Position numbers and translations under genes: made by a program. This document shows, piece by piece, positions 4,465-39,514 of a stretch of DNA of 41,895 nucleotides (the first letter of the stretch is position 1; each line of letters starts with the position of its first letter). The notes under the pieces were generated by a model. That model saw only the letters and a list, made by a program, of their open reading frames with translations, was not told the origin of the DNA and searched no databases. Origin of the DNA: a virus (Duplodnaviria > Caudoviricetes); the IMG/VR virus record IMGVR_UViG_3300037515_000067, positions 1 to 41,895 of that record; one strand, 5' to 3'.

Positions 4465-4664
4465 TTCTCCGCTCCGATCATCCTTGTCGTCTGGTCTTTC
4501 GCTTTAGCTGAAATCCACATACCTAAATTCCCGGCAAAATATCCCAAAAGCATCCAATAGGCTGGATGGACATCAATGCCGCTATGCGCGAATGCTCTAC
4601 CTATTGATGTCCATATAAAGCAAAACACAAATAACTCCACCATGTAGGGCAATATAGCCTTCAT
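4461..4664 (-). CDS. Hypothetical membrane protein
   Basis: Two hydrophobic segments; ATGA overlaps on both sides. Confidence 0.65.
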   Translation of the reverse strand: MKAILPYMVELFVFCFIWTSIGRAFAHSGIDVHPAYWMLLGYFAGNLGMWISAKAKDQTTRMIGAEK

Positions 4665-4945
4665 TTTTCCCCCACTTTCATCATCCCTTCCAGCCGTTTC
4701 AGTTTCCTATCAACCGCCTCCTGAATTACATCGTCACCGAATATCAGCCGAGGGTAAGCGGTGCAGATTTCAGCGTCCGCCAGTTCGTCTATCATGGCCG
4801 TGTAGCTTTCGTCTGTTGGTATATTGAGCCACCGCATTATTGATGCAGCGGCCTCCGCGAATTCTTCCGCTGTTTTCATCATCTGTCGGCGGGAACCCCA
4901 CTCAAGTAGCGCCTTTCCCTGTGTTGTCATTTTTCTAGCAGCCAT
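4661..4945 (-). CDS. MazG-like nucleotide pyrophosphohydrolase
   Basis: QxxKxxEExxE ... DELAD motif; GGAGG RBS. Confidence 0.7.
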   Translation of the reverse strand: MAARKMTTQGKALLEWGSRRQMMKTAEEFAEAAASIMRWLNIPTDESYTAMIDELADAEICTAYPRLIFGDDVIQEAVDRKLKRLEGMMKVGEK

Positions 4946-5130
4946 CTTGTAAATGCCTCCCAAGTTTTTTTAGACGGTGTCTTAATCGGATTTAGTGCTG
5001 ATTCACTCCGGTAAAATGTCGGCCCGTGGTAGTTGTGCCACTCCATCCAAACGCAAGCGCCGTATGGTTTCATGTTTACCCAGTAATCAGGCCCGCAGAT
5101 GAAACCGTGTTCAATTCTCATGCATGCCAT
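4927..5130 (-). CDS. Hypothetical protein
   Basis: ORF track, GGGGG RBS. Confidence 0.6.
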   Translation of the reverse strand: MACMRIEHGFICGPDYWVNMKPYGACVWMEWHNYHGPTFYRSESALNPIKTPSKKTWEAFTRWLLEK

Positions 5131-5281
5131 TTACCCCCCTTTTTATTTTCGGAAAATCCCATTCCTTTTCAAGGTAATTTCCTAAGCACTCCGGGCAATA
5201 ATATCCTTCTCTGTTCACTTCAAGAGGGGTGCCGCACTCCTTGCACCGATAACCTTGTTTGCGTGCTTCCGGTTCTTTCAT
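5111..5281 (-). CDS. Small zinc-ribbon protein (56 aa, not in ORF track)
   Basis: Manual translation MKEPEARKQGYRCKECGTPL...YYCPECLG; fills gap between genes. Confidence 0.55.
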   Translation of the reverse strand: MKEPEARKQGYRCKECGTPLEVNREGYYCPECLGNYLEKEWDFPKIKRGVNGMHEN

Positions 5282-5689
5282 TTATCCCCCTATCACCAGC
5301 AAGGCGGCATCCCTACCGTGTTCATTCGTCCGCCCCTGCCATTTGGTTACGGTGCGGAAATACTCCGCCGTCCATTTTGTAGCGCCCCTTTGTGGGGCAA
5401 TTGCGCGGGACTTGATGCCGTGGAACTGGCAGAATTCCGCCCAGATATTGCAGTCGCGTTTGACCGATCCGACACCCTGCAATACCTCTGCCCCCTTGCT
5501 CCCATACCACCGTCTTAAATTAGCGTCCTCGTATCTCAACTCGATTATTTCAAGTGGCCCGAGTTTTACTATTTTGTCCATTGCGGCGACTATGGACAAT
5601 GATGTCACCTCCAACAGTTTGCCAGTTGGTTTGTGCCAGATGGCAAACCCAGTGTTGACTCCGGGGTCGATACCGATGATAAATTGCAT
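5282..5689 (-). CDS. RuvC-like Holliday junction resolvase
   Basis: IIGIDPG...TGFA N-terminus, central Glu, C-terminal EHGRDAA. Confidence 0.8.
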   Translation of the reverse strand: MQFIIGIDPGVNTGFAIWHKPTGKLLEVTSLSIVAAMDKIVKLGPLEIIELRYEDANLRRWYGSKGAEVLQGVGSVKRDCNIWAEFCQFHGIKSRAIAPQRGATKWTAEYFRTVTKWQGRTNEHGRDAALLVIGG

Positions 5690-5715
5690 TTGCCCTCGAT
5701 GTTGTGACGCATTAA

Positions 5716-5758
5716 AATATGGGTTTATACAGGGGGGTCTATATAAGCCTTGTTAGAT
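5716..5758 (+). repeat. Array-head element copy 1 (attI-like candidate, G6 tract)
   Basis: AATATGGGTTTATACAG..TATAAGCCTTG|TTAGAT, near-identical to 37512-37557; ends in a GTTRRRY box. Confidence 0.7.
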
Positions 5759-6043
5759 GCTATCTGCTATTTCTCGCAGCCTGACAGCCATATCCTTGAG
5801 ACGCTCTGTTTGTTTTTCGATCTCTCGCAACACCACTTTCGGAATGTTTCCCGGCCAATCTTCCGAGTATTCCGACAGCGGCAATACAGTTAAACAGCGT
5901 GCTGCCTGAAAAATCAGCTTTCCCTTGGCGGCTTCAACTCTTTTCAACCTCGCATCTAACCCGGCGCTCAACTCGGACTTGCTACGCAAGTCGCGAATTT
6001 CGACTCCTGTGCAGTCCTTGAACATTTCGCTTTTTTCCATCAT
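5753..6043 (-). CDS. Hypothetical protein, cassette 1
   Basis: AAGGAG RBS and ATG lie inside the attC-like site; TAA stop is the TTA of the R' box at 5752. Confidence 0.7.
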   Translation of the reverse strand: MMEKSEMFKDCTGVEIRDLRSKSELSAGLDARLKRVEAAKGKLIFQAARCLTVLPLSEYSEDWPGNIPKVVLREIEKQTERLKDMAVRLREIADSI

Positions 6044-6086
6044 CTCTACTCCTTGGGCCGCAAGCCCGTTAGCTCAATCGTTGTAT
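5954..6086 (+). mobile_element. attC-like site (133 nt)
   Basis: R'' ATCTAAC, 5-nt spacer, L'' GCTCAACT (extra C), L' CGTTAGC, 6-nt spacer, R' GTTGTAT; GCATCTAAC complements GTTAGATGC at 5752. Confidence 0.8.
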
Positions 6087-6088
6087 TG

Positions 6089-6319
6089 CTAACCAAGGTG
6101 CAAATAAATCATCTTGTCTGGGGTCGATGAATATAGCGCATCATCTTTGCCGGAATAGCCACGGGGTTCCAACGGGTCTTTCTCATAGTACGAAACGCTA
6201 AAAACGGTTCCCTGGCTTTCCCCGGCAGAGTTGTCATGAGCCAAGACATGCACCGCTAATTTCCCACACCCATTTTTCTGTAGTTGCCTGAGTCTGGCTA
6301 TCAGTTTGTTGAGGTTCAT
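6089..6319 (-). CDS. Hypothetical protein, cassette 2
   Basis: AAGGA RBS before ATG 6319; lies wholly between two attC-like sites. Confidence 0.7.
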   Translation of the reverse strand: MNLNKLIARLRQLQKNGCGKLAVHVLAHDNSAGESQGTVFSVSYYEKDPLEPRGYSGKDDALYSSTPDKMIYLHLG

Positions 6320-6344
6320 CGTTTTGTCCTTTTTAAAAATCGCA

Positions 6345-6403
6345 ATACAACCAGTCAATCAACCGGATTCTCTACGCTCTCCCGGTTATTTCGGTCGTTA
6401 TGC
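6345..6403 (+). mobile_element. attC-like site (59 nt)
   Basis: R'' ATACAAC, L'' AATCAACC, L' GGTTATT, R' GTTATGC; GCAATACAAC complements GTTGTATTGC at 6080; near-identical to 37907-37964. Confidence 0.85.
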
Positions 6404-6407
6404 TTTG

Positions 6408-6641
6408 TCATTCCTTTACACGAAACCGGGTAAATCGTCGCTGGTCATCCGTTTCGGTTATCTCCATCTTTCCTAAGGTTTCGCCTTTTTCTTTGCCGAT
6501 GTATTCGCCGACAATGCGGCAGAGTTCGTCATCACTTAACTCAATTTCATTTGTTTTCACGCGAACCTCCTTGTCATGAGGGAGGATATGAACACAGGTG
6601 GAAATCCTACATCTTTGAGCCCCGCTGCATTGTACTTTCAT
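6408..6641 (-). CDS. Hypothetical protein, cassette 3
   Basis: GGAGG RBS; a second internal AAGGAGG+GTG start near 6560. Confidence 0.65.
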   Translation of the reverse strand: MKVQCSGAQRCRISTCVHILPHDKEVRVKTNEIELSDDELCRIVGEYIGKEKGETLGKMEITETDDQRRFTRFRVKE

Positions 6642-6653
6642 GGCACCTCCGAA

Positions 6654-6703
6654 AAATAACCACCCATCGAACCCGATAGGCGGGTTAATTTAATCCGTTA
6701 GCG
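6654..6703 (+). mobile_element. Short, partly degenerate attC-like site (50 nt)
   Basis: R'' AAATAAC, ATCGAACCCG/CGGGTTAAT stem, R' GTTAGCG; 7-nt right spacer and only 5/7 match to upstream R'. Confidence 0.6.
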
Positions 6704-7075
6704 AGAAACCGAAATAATTGATTCTGGGTGCTCGATACAGGACTTTAAATACTTCTCGATCCATGGCACAAAATGAATGTAAAGGCCCCACCCGTTGGGG
6801 GAATCAAACTTTTTATAGTGTTCGGGGCTATCCTTCATCTTCTGGAGGCCATCCGCCAACGGAGCAATAAGCTCTTTGGCGCTAATCAGGCCGAGTTCGT
6901 CAGGCCTCCAAAGGTGCATATATATCCCTGCTTCCTCCGCCATGTCGCCCAGATTATGGGTAATATTGGCATAAAAAAGCGTTTCTCGGTAAGTATGCTC
7001 GTGCTCATTATCGCATTTGCCACAACAACATCTTTCAGTTATTTCATCGCCGTGCAGGGTTACGTCTAAGCTCAT
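6698..7075 (-). CDS. Hypothetical protein, cassette 4
   Basis: GAGGT RBS; NITHNL...SPNGWG motifs I associate with phage hypotheticals; TAA stop is the TTA of R' at 6697. Confidence 0.8.
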   Translation of the reverse strand: MSLDVTLHGDEITERCCCGKCDNEHEHTYRETLFYANITHNLGDMAEEAGIYMHLWRPDELGLISAKELIAPLADGLQKMKDSPEHYKKFDSPNGWGLYIHFVPWIEKYLKSCIEHPESIISVSR

Positions 7076-7103
7076 AAGGCACCTCTATAATTTATCGTGA
7101 AAT

Positions 7104-7192
7104 CGCTAACAAACAGGTCAACCAGACCGCGTGAAGCGGCGGGTTTTCAAGGGTACCTCAGTGGCGCGGGCTGGTTACCCTTGGCGTTATCC
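7104..7192 (+). mobile_element. attC-like site (89 nt)
   Basis: R'' CGCTAAC, L'' GGTCAACC (extra C), CAGACC/GGCTG with second unpaired base, L' GGTTACC, R' GTTATCC; TCGCTAAC complements GTTAGCGA at 6697. Confidence 0.85.
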
Positions 7193-7199
7193 ACCCCAA

Positions 7200-7361
7200 T
7201 CATAGCCGGTACTTCTTGATAAGATCTGCAACCGCGATTGATTGCTGTAACGCCGTGTTGTCAGCTTCGACAAGTTTCAGCGCCAGGTATTTTATGACGC
7301 CATCTTTTTCTTCCCCTGCCGATTTCAGCGCGGCAATGATTGACCTGCATTCTTCGCACAT
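7200..7361 (-). CDS. Hypothetical protein (53 aa, not in ORF track)
   Basis: GGAGG RBS, MCEECRSIIAALK... Confidence 0.55.
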   Translation of the reverse strand: MCEECRSIIAALKSAGEEKDGVIKYLALKLVEADNTALQQSIAVADLIKKYRL

Positions 7362-7616
7362 TTAAACCTCCGTATCTATCATCCAATAAAACCAAATGTC
7401 TTTAAACCGTGCGCATCCGATATCAAACCCGTTTGCCCGTAGTTCAGATATGCACGAAGAAACGGCGCACACATTCGCCAGCCTGATTATATCCAACGTG
7501 CTGTAACATACGCCGCTAGATAGAAGATTCGCTACTCTTTGCAAACGTGGGCTTCTGTCTATCGAAGCGGCGTTTATTCTACCATGAATGCGGTGCTGCG
7601 GGTTGTTTTTTCTCAT
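7362..7616 (-). CDS. Helix-turn-helix DNA-binding protein
   Basis: STLDII...AVSSCISELRANGFDI winged-HTH-like pattern. Confidence 0.65.
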   Translation of the reverse strand: MRKNNPQHRIHGRINAASIDRSPRLQRVANLLSSGVCYSTLDIIRLANVCAVSSCISELRANGFDIGCARFKDIWFYWMIDTEV

Positions 7617-7888
7617 GTCTCCCCCAACATAAGACGATCCATTTTCTTGAGAAAGCACCGTGACCATTTGTTATCCATCGCCACTTTATCGTGCTGCGTA
7701 TCAGCGTAAGCACTGGCAGCATTGATAAAAGAGTTTCTCCGTTTAACATACGATGTGCATTTTTTGCACCGCACAACGGATACGGCGTGAATTTTCTTCG
7801 GCGGACCGTTCGCGACTACTATTGTTTCTACTGGATCAAGCCGCGTTATTTTGCACCCGCAAGGCGCGGTTTTAGTTGCGTGGTTCAT
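7613..7888 (-). CDS. Hypothetical protein
   Basis: ATGA overlaps, GGAGG RBS. Confidence 0.6.
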   Translation of the reverse strand: MNHATKTAPCGCKITRLDPVETIVVANGPPKKIHAVSVVRCKKCTSYVKRRNSFINAASAYADTQHDKVAMDNKWSRCFLKKMDRLMLGET

Positions 7889-8142
7889 TTACCCTCCATC
7901 ATTTCATTGGTTCGGTTGATTAACTCTTCCTGCGTGATAAATCTGCGCTCCCATTCTTTTTTCCCTAAATGGTGGATACCCTCCGTTCCTTGGTGATGAA
8001 GATAACATAGCGGGGAAGTTTTCCAGTTGTCGCGCTTTTCCCCGAACCGCCGGATATGGTGGACCGATACGGGCCTTGCCCCGCAGATCGCGCAAGGAAG
8101 GGAAGCAATAGCGGCAAGGTGCGACTTTTCCGCATTGGTCAT
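7885..8142 (-). CDS. Ref/DUF968-like HNH-fold nuclease
   Basis: LPCAICG...VHHIR...PLCYLHH...GIH pattern. Confidence 0.75.
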   Translation of the reverse strand: MTNAEKSHLAAIASLPCAICGARPVSVHHIRRFGEKRDNWKTSPLCYLHHQGTEGIHHLGKKEWERRFITQEELINRTNEMMEGK

Positions 8143-8525
8143 ATATCAACCCTTTCCCAAGTAACGCCCCGTTCCGATCCAAATGAATATACAAGCTCAA
8201 TCAGGTCTCTGAATTCGGTCTTACTCATCTTCGAAGTGTGCGCCCCGATGACTACAAAGCCTCCATCGATTCCGGGAACCGCCTTCTGTTTTTTGAGCCC
8301 TGCGGTCATCAGGTCTTTCCACTCTTCTGGAGTCAGTTTATTGCCGTACCATTCAACCTGATTCGATAGCTCGGTGAGTAGCGGCCAAAGCAATGCGTTT
8401 TGATCTAGGGACCGGCTAGGAGGCTTGATAATCACCTCCGTTCCGTCCTGCGCTTCTTTGACCGCTTGCATGGCGCGCTGCCGGATGAATCTATCCTTGA
8501 TGATGAAAGTGATTCGCCATTCCAT
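8139..8525 (-). CDS. ninB: NinB (lambda Orf)-family recombination protein
   Basis: RSLDQNALLW, WYGNKLTPEEWKD, TSKMSKTEFRDLIE. Confidence 0.9.
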   Translation of the reverse strand: MEWRITFIIKDRFIRQRAMQAVKEAQDGTEVIIKPPSRSLDQNALLWPLLTELSNQVEWYGNKLTPEEWKDLMTAGLKKQKAVPGIDGGFVVIGAHTSKMSKTEFRDLIELVYSFGSERGVTWERVDI

Positions 8526-9831: not shown

Positions 9832-10092
9832 CTAGGCATGGTCTGGCTCTTCGTAGTCGGGGCCTTGTGTTTCGTCGTAATCGCTTTTTGATTCATCCTT
9901 GTTGAGTGCATCAGAAAGCAACACGAAAGACCCTTCCCACGTTGAAGCGGTATGATGCCCATATCCGTCAACGTATGTTATACACTCGACTTCGTGGTCC
10001 CCGTTGTGGAATTCAGTCAACCCGAAAATTAACTTGTGGAAACGTCCCCCGGCCAATAATTTCAACCTTTTTTTAGCTTCGGCGAATGTCAT
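9832..10092 (-). CDS. Hypothetical protein
   Basis: GGAGG RBS, ATGA overlap. Confidence 0.6.
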   Translation of the reverse strand: MTFAEAKKRLKLLAGGRFHKLIFGLTEFHNGDHEVECITYVDGYGHHTASTWEGSFVLLSDALNKDESKSDYDETQGPDYEEPDHA

Positions 10093-26374: not shown

Positions 26375-27511
26375 TTACTCCTTTTCGATAGTCTGTTTGA
26401 TTCGTTCGGTAAGGCTACCAGCGGTCTTAGTGCCCCCGAAGTTACTGTAATCGGAACCTGCCTTGCGAAGCAGTTTAAATGCTACTGCAAGCTCGTTGTC
26501 GGCAAATTTTTCCGTTGACTGAGTCGCCAGACAATCGCGCATAACCTGATTAATAGACTTGTCTTCAAAACTGTAACTCTCCCCGACGAAGGCCCGAGCC
26601 TTGGTTACTACGCCGCCGAAACGTTTAACCGCTTCGTCTGCAAACGATTTCTTTTCCTTGGCAAGAGCTTTGCGGAAGTCGGCATCGGTGAACTTCTTCT
26701 TGTCTTCCTCTTCCATGTCTTCGTCTTCGACCGGCTTTTCTTCCATATCTCCAACCGGTTTTTCTTCCATGTCTCCTTCGGGCTTTTCTTCCGTCTCTTC
26801 TGCCGGGATTTCGACGCCCTGCTCTTTCGAGTAGGAAATGATTTCTTGCATTGCCGGGATCAACTCGCCCAGCTTATCAACCGGGACTTTCTTGATTGCG
26901 TCAGGGAGCGCCATTGCAATCTCGACGATCTGTTCAAGATTGACTGCCCCCTCTTCATCCAGGAAAAACTTGTTAATCTTGCCTTTCTTCATCTCTCCGA
27001 TTCCTTCCGTGATTGATTTTCTGTCTAAGAAACTGCATAGCGGTCCACAACGGCCAGACGGGACAGCCGCGAGATGGTGCGGGATTATATTGACCTGCTC
27101 ATAATCCCATTTCGAATGCTCGATTAAATCGGCCATGTATCCTAAGGACATTTGCTTTTTATCTGCAAGCAATGCCGTCATGGAGTCGTTAACCACTAAG
27201 GTGTTTTTAACCGCAAGCCTTGTGTTGGTTGCTTCGTCGATCTGGTCGATAACCTCCGATACAGTTACGCTGCTGCCGGTGTTCGGTGCCATCACCTCGA
27301 TACTTACGTGCTCATTTGTAAGCGGTATCCCCGGCATTTTGTACGCGGCATTGGCGATAGTCGCCGGGGAACGATACACGGTAAAGACTTTATCCGGAGG
27401 ATCAAGCCCCAACTCGATACCAAGATACTCAAGTACCCCATCACGGATGCTGAGCGCCGTCCGGTCTGCGTTTGAATACTCCGCGATATCTCTGAATTGT
27501 TTTTTTATCAT
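26375..27511 (-). CDS. Head maturation protease/scaffold (DUF2213-like)
   Basis: GVLEYLGIELG, VYRSP, PLTNEH, MSLGY, HLAAVPSGRCG; acidic C-terminal half. Confidence 0.85.
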   Translation of the reverse strand: MIKKQFRDIAEYSNADRTALSIRDGVLEYLGIELGLDPPDKVFTVYRSPATIANAAYKMPGIPLTNEHVSIEVMAPNTGSSVTVSEVIDQIDEATNTRLAVKNTLVVNDSMTALLADKKQMSLGYMADLIEHSKWDYEQVNIIPHHLAAVPSGRCGPLCSFLDRKSITEGIGEMKKGKINKFFLDEEGAVNLEQIVEIAMALPDAIKKVPVDKLGELIPAMQEIISYSKEQGVEIPAEETEEKPEGDMEEKPVGDMEEKPVEDEDMEEEDKKKFTDADFRKALAKEKKSFADEAVKRFGGVVTKARAFVGESYSFEDKSINQVMRDCLATQSTEKFADNELAVAFKLLRKAGSDYSNFGGTKTAGSLTERIKQTIEKE

Positions 27512-36783: not shown

Positions 36784-36939
36784 TTATTCCTCCACGAAGA
36801 TAAAATTGCCGCCCTGGGAGCACTCTATTTTGATTTTGTGCGGTGCATAGCATACAGGACGAATGTTGTTGTAGAAATAGCAACCGTCGCACAATTCAAA
36901 TTCAGCTACCTCAACCTTCCTTAGCTTCGGCTCTTCCAT
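36784..36939 (-). CDS. Small Cys-rich protein (51 aa, not in ORF track)
   Basis: GGAGGAATAAATG coupling at both ends; LCDGCYF. Confidence 0.6.
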   Translation of the reverse strand: MEEPKLRKVEVAEFELCDGCYFYNNIRPVCYAPHKIKIECSQGGNFIFVEE

Positions 36940-37302
36940 TTATTCCTCCCATTCCGGATCAATCGCCGCCACCGCGTCCCGAAGCTCCCTCAGTGTGCAA
37001 TCGTCGCCATCGGTTAAATGCAAATTCTCCACCAGAGTGTTGCGAGCCGCATACAACAATTTCCCAAGTTTTGGTGATATATCTTTAGCCCGTTGCGCCA
37101 ATTGCACAGCGTCTCTGATCGTCGCGGGTATCTCGCCGTCACTTGTGAAACAATCCTGGTAGTCGGCATCTTTTAGGATTTTCCGGATAGTAGAATAAAC
37201 ACTTGACTGCCCGGCATCGAACGATATTTTACAGTATCCGAGCGCAGAAAGCGGCGTACCTTTTGACTGCATTTCCGCTGAAACTTCATCCCAGTTTTTC
37301 AT
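36940..37302 (-). CDS. Hypothetical protein
   Basis: ORF track, ATGA overlap. Confidence 0.65.
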   Translation of the reverse strand: MKNWDEVSAEMQSKGTPLSALGYCKISFDAGQSSVYSTIRKILKDADYQDCFTSDGEIPATIRDAVQLAQRAKDISPKLGKLLYAARNTLVENLHLTDGDDCTLRELRDAVAAIDPEWEE

Positions 37303-37496
37303 TCATCTTCCTCCTTTATGATGCCTATCTGCACGATACTACCACCCGGCCCGACATACGCTGCCGCCTGTTCTTTGGTAGCGAAAACCAGCATACATCC
37401 GGTGCAACCATCGGCCATGCCTGAAATTTGCAGGGTTCTTTTTATCCCCATGGTTTCGATTTCAGCTTCTTTTTTCAATGACATCGCAGCCCACAT
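37299..37496 (-). CDS. Hypothetical protein
   Basis: GGAGG RBS directly beside the array-head element. Confidence 0.6.
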   Translation of the reverse strand: MWAAMSLKKEAEIETMGIKRTLQISGMADGCTGCMLVFATKEQAAAYVGPGGSIVQIGIIKEEDE

Positions 37497-37511
37497 TTCA
37501 TCCTCCGCTTA

Positions 37512-37557
37512 AATATGGGTTTATACAGGGGGGGGGGCTGTATAAGCCTTGTTATCG
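37512..37557 (+). repeat. Array-head element copy 2 (attI-like candidate, G10 tract)
   Basis: AATATGGGTTTATACAG..CTGTATAAGCCTTG|TTATCG; TTATACAG/CTGTATAA inverted repeat. Confidence 0.7.
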
Positions 37558-37890
37558 CTCAAACCAAAATATCACCGGTTTCCCGGTTGCCTCGACCAGC
37601 CCGTAACGCTCTGCCATGCGGTAATTTGCGCTCCGCAGTCTCAGCCGCTCTACCTGCGCCGTCATTTCGGCCCGGAACTGTTCCAGCGGATGCACCGATT
37701 TCCAGAGATTGCAAGCACGGCAGGCTGGCATCATGTTATCAATCGTGTCCGCGCCCCGGTATTTAGGGTTTACGGTAGGGTTGCCGCGCCATATTGGTTT
37801 CAGGTGGTCAACGTGCATCTGTTTCAGGGTGATTTCCTGACCACAATATGCACATCTGCCCCCGTATTTTGCATGCACCGTTTTTCTCAT
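37552..37890 (-). CDS. HNH endonuclease carried as a cassette
   Basis: KYGGRCAYCG, MHVDH, NMMPACRACNLWK; TAA stop is TTA of R' at 37551. Confidence 0.85.
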   Translation of the reverse strand: MRKTVHAKYGGRCAYCGQEITLKQMHVDHLKPIWRGNPTVNPKYRGADTIDNMMPACRACNLWKSVHPLEQFRAEMTAQVERLRLRSANYRMAERYGLVEATGKPVIFWFER

Positions 37891-37906
37891 TCTGCAACCT
37901 CGATTG

Positions 37907-37964
37907 CGATAACCAGTCAATCAACCGGATTCGCTACGCTCTCCGGTTATTTCGGTCGTTATAC
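37907..37964 (+). mobile_element. attC-like site (58 nt)
   Basis: R'' CGATAAC, L'' AATCAACC, L' GGTTATT, R' GTTATAC; GCGATAAC complements GTTATCGC at 37551. Confidence 0.85.
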
Positions 37965-38141: not shown

Positions 38142-38174
38142 AATTTTGCCGCCTCCTGTTAATTTGCCCCACAA

Positions 38175-38387
38175 TCAACTTAATGGCCGTAATCGCAAAC
38201 CATCTACAATCTCGCATGGCGTTAGAGATCCTATCCCATAGTGTCCACACACATCGCAGAACCACGACTCAACCCCACTATCCGCTGGCACCTTAGGTAT
38301 CCAACCTGCACTCCTGGAGCACCTATCGCAACAATGAATATTGACAACGCCATTCTTATGCTTTGAGAAGTCAACCATCTTAGCCAT
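38175..38387 (-). CDS. Hypothetical Cys-rich protein
   Basis: CCDRC, CDVC; start chosen just after repeat copy. Confidence 0.55.
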   Translation of the reverse strand: MAKMVDFSKHKNGVVNIHCCDRCSRSAGWIPKVPADSGVESWFCDVCGHYGIGSLTPCEIVDGLRLRPLS

Positions 38388-38439
38388 ACCTTCCATTAAT
38401 TTGCCACACAATCCATTACCAATCACCCCTCGTGGCACG

Positions 38440-38661
38440 CTAAAACAACTCATCATACTCGCGGCACGTCCCTTTTTTCTTCACCGCGAATCCTCCTAAA
38501 CAGCAACGCATGTTTTTCTCCTCGCGATATACTCCCACTTTATTACACTCCGGGACCGGTTCGGTAAACTCGGACCTGAAGTTTGCGCAATTTCCGCAGG
38601 TGCGCGGTATCGGTTTCTGGTCGTACCCTTGCCTGATTTTAGCCTCTCCTTGTTTGCTCAT
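38440..38661 (-). CDS. Hypothetical Cys-rich protein
   Basis: AGGAGG RBS; TCGNCANF...RC.LGGFAV. Confidence 0.65.
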   Translation of the reverse strand: MSKQGEAKIRQGYDQKPIPRTCGNCANFRSEFTEPVPECNKVGVYREEKNMRCCLGGFAVKKKGTCREYDELF

Positions 38662-38691
38662 CTTTCCGCCTCCTGTTAATTTGCCCAAAGT

Positions 38692-38925
38692 TCAGCAAAC
38701 GTACCAACATTTAAGATATTTACCTTTCCCGATTGGTATGTAAATTTCCCCGTAATAGTCGTCTTCACAAACCCCGGAACGTTGCTCAACATAGATATGG
38801 TCGATCAACCCCGTAAGGTCTTCTCTCCCCCCTTTTGGACGATCCACAATATCGACAAGACCACATGACCCGCCATCCTCTTTCATAATTTCTATCACTG
38901 CCTTCAAAAACTCTTCCATCTCCAC
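38692..38925 (-). CDS. Hypothetical protein
   Basis: Follows repeat copy; DDYYGEIYIP. Confidence 0.65.
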   Translation of the reverse strand: MEMEEFLKAVIEIMKEDGGSCGLVDIVDRPKGGREDLTGLIDHIYVEQRSGVCEDDYYGEIYIPIGKGKYLKCWYVC

Positions 38926-38957
38926 CCCCGTTGTTAATTTGCCCCACTGTTATACGT

Positions 38958-39161
38958 CTACCACTCAACGCCGGTAAGTTCGATATCTTCCCCGCATTCA
39001 GGACAGGTCAATTCACAACCGATCAATTTGTCCCATCCGTTGTTGAAAATAGGATTCATAATATTGCCGCCATCATCCTGGTCAAAAGCGTCGAACATGT
39101 TTTCACATTTCGGACATTCGACATCGAGAGATGCCCTTAGCGTCGATATAACTCTTTCCAT
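38958..39161 (-). CDS. Hypothetical zinc-ribbon protein
   Basis: AGGAG RBS; VECPKC, LTCPECG. Confidence 0.65.
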   Translation of the reverse strand: MERVISTLRASLDVECPKCENMFDAFDQDDGGNIMNPIFNNGWDKLIGCELTCPECGEDIELTGVEW

Positions 39162-39268
39162 TTCATCTCCTGCTGAATTTGCCCCATAATCAATTCCTAA
39201 CCATCCGCCATGCCGTATCCCTTCGCGCTGTTCCGTTCGTGTCTCCTGACCGGCAAGGCGTTCCATTT

Positions 39269-39514
39269 TTACGGATTCACGAACATCGTGACGGCCCGCT
39301 TTAGGACCAGTGCCCTAGCTTTACCGATAAAAGACAATTCTACGTCTGACGAAAACCACCGCTTGCCACGCAATATCCTTACCCAGTAAAATATATCCTT
39401 TTCGCTGGATATCGCCGATGGCCCTAAATCGTAAAACATCCCCCGTCCTTTGGTTTTGTCGTGGAATTCAATCGAATCGCCAATCAATTTAACCTCTATC
39501 ATCGTGTCCCCCAT
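39269..39514 (-). CDS. Hypothetical protein
   Basis: ORF directly downstream of DnaB. Confidence 0.55.
   Translation of the reverse strand: MGDTMIEVKLIGDSIEFHDKTKGRGMFYDLGPSAISSEKDIFYWVRILRGKRWFSSDVELSFIGKARALVLKRAVTMFVNP

Follow-up and report, generated by a model that had tools for sequence, protein, structure and literature searches.

We analysed a 41,895-bp virus record of IMG/VR (IMGVR_UViG_3300037515_000067; Duplodnaviria, Caudoviricetes), the whole of which is referred to here as the window. A scan of its 84 proteins against PHROG indicated a contractile-tailed phage in which all recognised genes lie on the minus strand. They comprise Gam-like, Erf, NinB, an array of small genes, Holliday junction resolvase, SSB, helicase and methyltransferase, followed by initiator, DnaB, HNH genes, terminase, head, tail and lysis genes. 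The array following NinB (5753–7186), and a second one at 37552–37964, consist of integron-type gene cassettes with attC sites. In both arrays the genes run opposite to the usual direction relative to attC, and both open at the same motif of ~40 bp, directly after which related phages carry different cassettes.

The record is linear and was rated 100% complete by CheckV. Direct comparison of its ends revealed no shared overlap, and a small piece may be absent. The sequence occurs in sediment and soil runs (eight runs listed), and there was no RNA dataset among the listed holders. Six-frame searches of the whole genome yielded no match to the tyrosine recombinase family PF00589 (control, 14 of 14 found) or to the serine recombinase family PF00239 (control, 13 of 14), in agreement with a preliminary description of this DNA in which no tyrosine recombinase had been visible. 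There was also no Xer-like small recombinase adjoining the array in the window.

attC Sites in the Window

The preliminary description had reported four attC-like sites at 5954–6086, 6345–6403, 6654–6703 and 7104–7192. We searched the window with a covariance model made by aligning the bottom strands of 25 canonical sites under a hand-set structure; a box heuristic supplied the sites, which came from plasmids and bacterial contigs and from viral records with arrays of canonical appearance (12 + 13 sites). Run with its filters off, so that E-values are rough, the model returned exactly those four coordinates, all on one strand, and a fifth site at 37907–37964. These five ranked highest among 22 matches, all with their bottom strands on the minus strand, and the best match outside them (sixth of 22) scored 14.2 bits. 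All have their top strand on the plus strand. attC A (5954–6086) scored 23.6 bits and belongs to a family also found at loci L026, L114, L187 and L188. attC B (6345–6403, 39.4 bits) is nearly identical to attC E (37907–37964, 39.8 bits) and to sites in L018, L019/L107, L020, L021 and L118. attC C (6654–6703, 17.9 bits) is short, at 50 bp, and degenerate, and attC D (7104–7192) scored 32.8 bits, the array stopping within it at G7186|TT.

The R'' (RYYYAAC) and R' (GTTRRRY) boxes, with their conserved AAC and GTT, were present in all five sites, the variants being the R' of A (GTTGTAT) and the R'' of C (AAATAAC). In A, B, D and E, L'' carries an extrahelical base, which is a G when read on the bottom strand. 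The extra unpaired C reported earlier for L'' is clear in A, B and D; in C it is doubtful, and the standard register there produces either an extra G or a mismatch. A simpler box scan at a stricter threshold found three window sites (B, D and E) and none in each of 10 shuffled sequences, and in its integrated form the bottom strand of attC B folds so as to pair both its R and its L boxes. We conclude that the four reported sites and the fifth are genuine attC-type sites. With four sites within 1.24 kb on the same strand and no integrase nearby, the array is by definition a CALIN (cluster of attC sites lacking an integron integrase) rather than a canonical cassette array, and one that probably works like an integron run in trans. 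In one sequencing run (X2), the summed contig depth over attC B (window 6342–6475) was 60, compared to 3.5 on either side, so that many other contigs of that sediment carry the attC-B family.

Cassettes and Their Genes

The cassettes of the first array, read on the plus strand from G|TT to G|TT, lie at 5753–6080 (cassette 1, 328 bp), 6081–6397 (cassette 2, 317 bp), 6398–6697 (cassette 3, 300 bp) and 6698–7186 (cassette 4, 489 bp); cassette 5, on the same strand, lies at 37552–37958 (407 bp). The R'' box of each complements the left edge of its own cassette, by 9, 10, 5, 8 and 8 nt in cassettes 1–5, whereas its complementarity to the integrated R' extends over 3, 3, 4 and 4 nt in cassettes 1–4. 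This offset complementarity had been described for three cassettes of the first array, and these are the ones with 9, 10 and 8 nt; all six 8–10-mers quoted for them were found at the positions given. Overall, the complement is 8–10 nt long in four of the five cassettes and only 5 nt in cassette 3, which is probably decayed. Isolated 8-nt GTT..AAC pairs are not rare, with 14 in the window compared to 1–9 in each of 10 shuffles, and the case depends on the location of the pairs at attC edges.

Each cassette holds one open reading frame (ORF) on the minus strand, and purine-rich stretches resembling ribosome-binding sites precede the starts of all five. ORF 1 (5753–6043, 96 aa) belongs to no family, and a search of viral contigs returned no relatives. 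Its ribosome-binding site and start codon (ATG 6043) lie within attC A, and its stop codon TAA in the left R' box. The units had been described as single ORFs separated by sites; each does hold a single ORF, but ORF 1 overlaps attC A by ~90 nt. Its relatives elsewhere divide at R'': P0003 has the same body (79%, 76 aa) with a different N-terminus, while P0004 has the N-terminus encoded by attC with a different body. ORF 2 (6089–6319) encodes 76 aa from its ATG, or 89 aa from a TTG at 6358; it matched only itself in viral contigs, no relatives were found, and its atlas matches, at 0.90 to unnamed viral clusters, are weak. ORF 3 (6408–6641, 77 aa) has no family. ORF 4 (6698–7075, 125 aa) is a member of PHROG 4019, a common viral family of unknown function, and also ends with a TAA in the left R' box. 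At four other loci encoding members of this family (L022–L025), the attC model found no attC in the flanks. The last ORF before the published CALIN of phage TJE1 (L194, 48902–49186) is likewise a relative of ORF 4 (44%, 95 aa). The gene of cassette 5 (37552–37890) encodes an HNH endonuclease (PF01844, 38.3 bits), its stop codon TAA again lying in the left R' box.

The cargo consists of phage-type accessory genes, the HNH nuclease being the only one in the window with a known role. In relatives, the cassettes include DNA methyltransferases (L117 and L120) and a PAPS-reductase-like gene, a sign that one of the uses of cassettes in these relatives may be DNA modification and counter-defence. Relatives of the window's resolvase gene were found at 17 loci (43–54%), and there was no attC match in the four that were scanned (L001–L003 and L005).

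Orientation of the Cassette Genes

The first extrahelical base sets the choice of strand, and recombination takes place at R' (PMC2727003). The extra base in L'' identifies the plus strand of the window as the attC top strand. All five cassette ORFs lie on the minus, or bottom, strand and are therefore antisense to the polarity of their attC sites, a point that the preliminary description had missed together with the fifth site and its cassette (37552–37964) and the array-opening motif. Automatic orientation calls on the window gave four inverted and one ambiguous, the latter being the PHROG 4019 gene, which is on the minus strand as well. None of the window's cassettes has the canonical arrangement, in which the gene reads along the top strand and its attC comes after it.

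For comparison, we surveyed 102 of 123 model matches (those of at least 20.3 bits, leaving out 21 weaker ones) using a crude ORF rule. At bacterial-type loci, including the integron of a Shewanella prophage, 27 of 43 sites were canonical, one was inverted, six were ambiguous and nine had no edge; seven of these 43 had also served in training the model. At viral loci, excluding the window, 38 of 59 sites were inverted, four were canonical, six were ambiguous and 11 had no edge, counts that give no frequency for phages at large since the loci had been selected for resembling either the window or one particular IntI. TJE1, a CALIN of Qi et al., accounts for two of the four canonical viral sites.

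A Candidate Landing Motif and Cassette Exchange among Relatives

Both arrays open with the same motif, at 5712–5754, with the crossover between 5752 and 5753, and at 37509–37553, with the crossover between 37551 and 37552, each read on the plus strand. It consists of an 11-bp inverted repeat flanking a run of 6–11 G, followed by TAA-GCCTT-G|TT. Pattern scans brought the number of known copies to five in four contigs: two in the window, one in a metagenome contig (L026) and, with a looser pattern, one in each of two viral contigs (L187 and L188); a stricter pattern had no match in viral contigs. In all five copies a different cassette directly follows the same G|TT, with an attC and, at the opposite end of the unit, an 8–11-nt offset complement, so that the motif behaves as a fixed entry point with a variable first cassette, as an attI does. 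We infer that it is an orphan attI. Where an attI would have an inverted L box 5 bp ahead of the R box, the motif has TAA-N5-GTT, a spacing that also occurs in L115, L117, L119, L126, L130 and G004, and attI1 has AAA-N5-GTT; seven of 10 sites of the phage IntI clade differ. A role of the motif as a promoter is unlikely, since the number of G in the run ranges from 6 to 11.

As offset complementarity is symmetric, we took the polarity of exchange from relatives. Genome G002 (L188/L214) is 88% identical to window 36932–37555 over 624 bp and splits from it after G|TTAT. Past the split it carries six other attC-ended units, with the last attC-A halved, and rejoins the window at 39155. Loci L018 and L021 share a block of 462 bp (82%) that contains one cassette and an attC-B between different neighbours and spans from 2 nt before G|TT to the spacer of the R''-side attC. 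L112 and L120 share 338 bp (96%), again one cassette with its attC and with the same boundaries, both ends lying at G|TT; this cassette is the first after the intI-adjacent site in one locus and lies mid-array in the other. In both blocks, then, a gene moves together with the attC that precedes it. A comparison of related phages for cassette differences at G|TT had been proposed in the preliminary description; such differences are present in G002, in both pairs of loci and in the five motif copies. G|TT exchange is therefore supported by relatives, and the offset complementarity cited for it cannot by itself place the side of the crossover. A one-step insertion of the top strand was rejected as the origin of the inversion, as it would flip the attC along with the gene.

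G004 follows the same plan with a different motif: one short sequence, ending TAA-ACTAT-G|TT, opens both of its arrays (L020 3285–3300 and L213 1085–1105). There was no PF00589 match in G004 (77% complete) or G002 (81% complete), while G003 (100% complete) has one tyrosine recombinase, not an IntI, ~12 kb from its array.

Possible Sources of an Integrase

An integrase supplied in trans is likely, and whether it comes from the host or from a phage is about even. The host phylum is only suggested, through relatives with IntI and attC patterns. The exact attC-B pattern was present in four viral contigs and in no GTDB contig. A looser version, with a different loop, occurred in five of 401 genomes from the phylum of G001, a Desulfobacteraceae metagenome-assembled genome (MAG). 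IntI at 47–56% identity was encoded in 48 of 401 sampled genomes of this candidate host phylum. The window's capsid protein had no match in the same 401 genomes and so revealed no prophage among them.

Phages themselves also encode IntI. At L019/L107, one of the four viral contigs with the exact attC-B pattern, an IntI (TIGR02249, 398.5 bits with a cut-off of 265) lies 1.5 kb from an attC-B and adjoins a terminase gene. Its relatives in viral contigs (63–87% identity) are found beside terminase, portal, primase or head genes. In a quick tree, for which 56 of 74 rows were kept after motif and length filters, 11 viral rows formed a clade with one Geopsychrobacter MAG protein (Shimodaira–Hasegawa-like approximate likelihood ratio test, SH-aLRT, 100). 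The loci of this phage-borne clade (L107–L120) have a conserved intI-adjacent site followed by variable first cassettes, and these are inverted. Because the clade uses the same attC family and the same inverted layout, the enzyme need not be that of the host. L117, which has IntI, and L187, which has the window-type motif and no IntI, have in common a 1,138-bp flank (94%) that ends at the distal crossover of the array. It is possible that an ancestral phage intI was once present in the lineage of the window and was later lost.

A second viral IntI group (L123, L124, L126 and L130; SH-aLRT 99) was also seen, with six inverted and two ambiguous among eight sites. In a GenBank virus from an enrichment culture (L192, KX853513), an IntI-like gene (43.6% identity over 98% of the query) is annotated as xerD, and our model found no attC in 10.6 kb. 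A gene for a reverse transcriptase, its ends resembling those of a group II intron, comes immediately after an attC-like hairpin in the phage integron of L117 (4880–6790), on the strand of the inverted genes. It looks like an IIC-attC intron, a class that has been proposed as a maker of cassettes (PMC7923331).

Proposed Mechanism and Alternatives

The starting points for our interpretation are the observed sites and their polarity, the inversion of the genes, the lack of a recombinase gene and the different cassettes found at the same base in relatives. We consider it likely, with a probability of roughly 0.7, that new cassettes enter the two inverted-gene arrays at the G|TT of the shared 40-bp motif, inserted by an IntI that is likely to act in trans, from the host or from a co-infecting IntI-bearing phage. 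If integron biology applies here, IntI would bind the folded bottom strand, which in these arrays is the coding strand, and cut it at G|TT; circles would be excised and then inserted at the motif acting as an orphan attI. The newest cassette would then lie furthest downstream, and attC A would provide the ribosome-binding site and N-terminus of its gene. With the genes inverted, the early phage transcript (Erf, NinB, array and resolvase) could read each of them without the integron promoter Pc. The inversion would also make the recombinogenic strand the non-template strand and, if replication follows transcription, the template of the lagging strand. That this favours folding is a tentative suggestion. 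Excision has been shown to be limited when the bottom strand is on the template of the leading strand (PMC5371416).

Several results weigh against this interpretation. In the circular forms, the L boxes are left unpaired, in part or entirely, by the minimum-energy folds of the bottom strands; A and D adopt alternatives to the recombinogenic form and C is weak. Site C, at 50 bp, is degenerate, with its 5-nt complement and doubtful extra base. No relative with any of cassettes 1–4 in another array was recovered as DNA. None of the five motif copies has an adjoining intI (the L026 contig was searched in part), the hairpin of the motif has no compensatory change across the five sequences, and its resemblance to the intI-adjacent site of the phage clade is solely in the TAA-N5-GTT spacing, which is held by three of 10 such sites. 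G002 and G004 are incomplete, and the window is linear. In contigs from four of the eight listed runs there was no joint at which precisely one cassette is missing, and one contig of run X1, which may be the source of the record, covers 5726–8325 unbroken, while contigs of run X2 hold pieces of cassettes 2–4. As contigs lose rare variants, this neither shows nor excludes current activity. One X2 joint, from 6074 to 6342, was not used because of a 30-nt side and unknown letters in between, and loose contig ends at 5755 and 6082, which fit other cassettes after G|TT, were not counted as they are mixed consensus lines that stem from other organisms or the second locus.

The arrays could alternatively be frozen relics, built by an ancestor with intI beside the motif and changed since that gene was lost only by Erf/NinB homologous recombination between attC repeats or flanks. 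The decay of site C, the halved final attC-A of G002, the lack of exact-cassette joints in four runs and the presence of intI at the equivalent place in a relative of an integrase-less array (L117 versus L187) all fit this idea. In addition, L138, L140, L184 and L185 match only a C-terminal part of IntI, although for L138 and L140 the end of the contig accounts for this. A frozen ancestor would, however, predict common first cassettes, whereas the five motif copies have five different ones and no adjoining intI, and sites B and E are near-intact copies with 8–10-nt complements. We therefore regard a relic as unlikely. It is less probable still that attC-like sites are recombined by a tyrosine recombinase other than IntI, either host XerC/D or a Xer-like phage enzyme. 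The core of the motif can be read as two AT-rich arms flanking a 6-bp spacer, which is the geometry of dif, and G003 has one recombinase of this type. However, that enzyme is ~12 kb from its array and there is none in the window, G002 or G004, the sites are recognised by a model of canonical attC and possess the extrahelical base, and an identical attC-B adjoins a true IntI.

The trans-IntI reading has a close neighbour in which the cassettes are real and the motif is a degenerate terminal attC, an attG-type hotspot or a regulatory hairpin where cassettes are tolerated. The two overlap and differ only in the class of site. The motif does have a hairpin with a variable loop and TTAA upstream, at the would-be R'', and IntI inserts cassettes at many GWT sites (10.1101/2022.09.11.507474). 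Its absence from the 22 attC-model matches in the window, its conservation over 40 bp across different gene contexts and its array-opening position in five of five copies make these options quite unlikely. The comparisons already refute a reading of the sites as hairpins arisen by chance, or as terminators, that separate small phage genes. On the transcribed strand, attC C does score as a hairpin of terminator type, but that explanation leaves no place for the model scores, the single polarity, the offset complements or the differences between relatives that fall exactly at G|TT.

More broadly, and with less confidence, it can be imagined that sediment phages keep an integron system of their own. 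Such a system would comprise mirror-image cassettes of ordinary phage genes, a phage clade of IntI and integrase-free phages that have only a portable orphan attI (two copies in the window) and borrow IntI during co-infection; the inversion would be adaptive by exposing the recombinogenic strand while the phage is transcribed or replicated, and the birth of cassettes from non-cassette genes would be visible in the pool. This wider proposal is possible rather than probable.

Other Repeats and Sequence Scans

Directly after the second array, window 38152–39191 contains five copies of a 25-nt repeat (72–100%) between single small ORFs. The repeat includes a ribosome-binding site and GTTAA, and in G002 one attC-A has a copy of the repeat in place of its right half. 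The units could be domesticated cassettes whose attC sites were lost. The units starting at 37958 and 38952 both open with GTTATACGT, with a stop codon in or beside GTTATACGT, and our attC model detected no attC at their opposite ends. A 33-nt repeat with two copies (73%; 10003–10035 and 39458–39490), both ending in TTAAC, lies in regions of small genes, and three repeats spaced by 24 nt were found within the head protease gene (26723–26812). An Rfam scan of 4500–8500 returned two matches, both attributable to chance, blastn of 5200–7700 against GenBank phages returned none, and a promoter scan found four candidates with 3.9 expected.

Comparison with Known Integron Systems

Integrons are regarded as bacterial devices, in which the choice of strand ensures that cassette genes face Pc. 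If phages maintain a pool in which this rule is reversed, with docks and perhaps integrases of their own, phage mosaicism would gain a further, site-specific route. The pool also offers substrates for studying how cassettes arise: a gene family (that of ORF 4) without attC at all four other loci examined, one attC that heads several unrelated genes, and attC-encoded N-termini swapped at R''. The origin of cassettes is stated as unknown in 10.1101/030866.

Clusters of attC without integrase have already been published for phages. Qi et al. (2023) identified 17 phage CALINs in 10,705 phages, in virulent phages, and found that IntI1 recombined five of six phage attC sites in Escherichia coli (PMC9892861). 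Those arrays resemble that of the window in having at least two attC sites, no intI, a virulent-looking phage and small single-gene cassettes. However, the TJE1 and PH101 arrays were described as typical of bacterial arrays (PMC9892861), and both TJE1 sites scored here are indeed canonical, whereas all window genes are inverted. A repeated landing motif and cassette exchange between relatives are likewise found in the window group and not in that paper; our findings on inversion, motif and exchange therefore go further. A literature search that covered few subscription journals returned no paper describing phage cassettes with inverted genes, a landing site reused by phages or an IntI clade of phages.

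The window shares with complete integrons, as described in 10.1101/030866 and PMC2727003, the R''-L''-L'-R' architecture, the extrahelical base, the G|TT crossover, the movement of a cassette with its R''-side attC and the probable entry of the newest cassette at one fixed site. It differs from them in lacking intI in cis and Pc and in having its genes on the bottom strand, so that attC precedes the gene. Insertion at attG sites and SALINs (single attC sites lacking an integron integrase) likewise involve IntI acting in trans, far from its own gene, at GWT (10.1101/2022.09.11.507474); attG sites, however, are many and low in information, unlike the single 40-bp motif that occurs twice in the window and recurs across phages. 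In inverted-integrase integrons, intI may share a strand with the cassette genes (PMC13323075), but there it is intI that is flipped relative to attC, whereas in the L107 type intI keeps its normal polarity with respect to attC and it is the genes that are reversed. The phage IntI integrons of L107–L120 have the attC families, the inversion and the G|TT exchange in common with the window, and differ from it in that IntI is encoded beside a different landing sequence.

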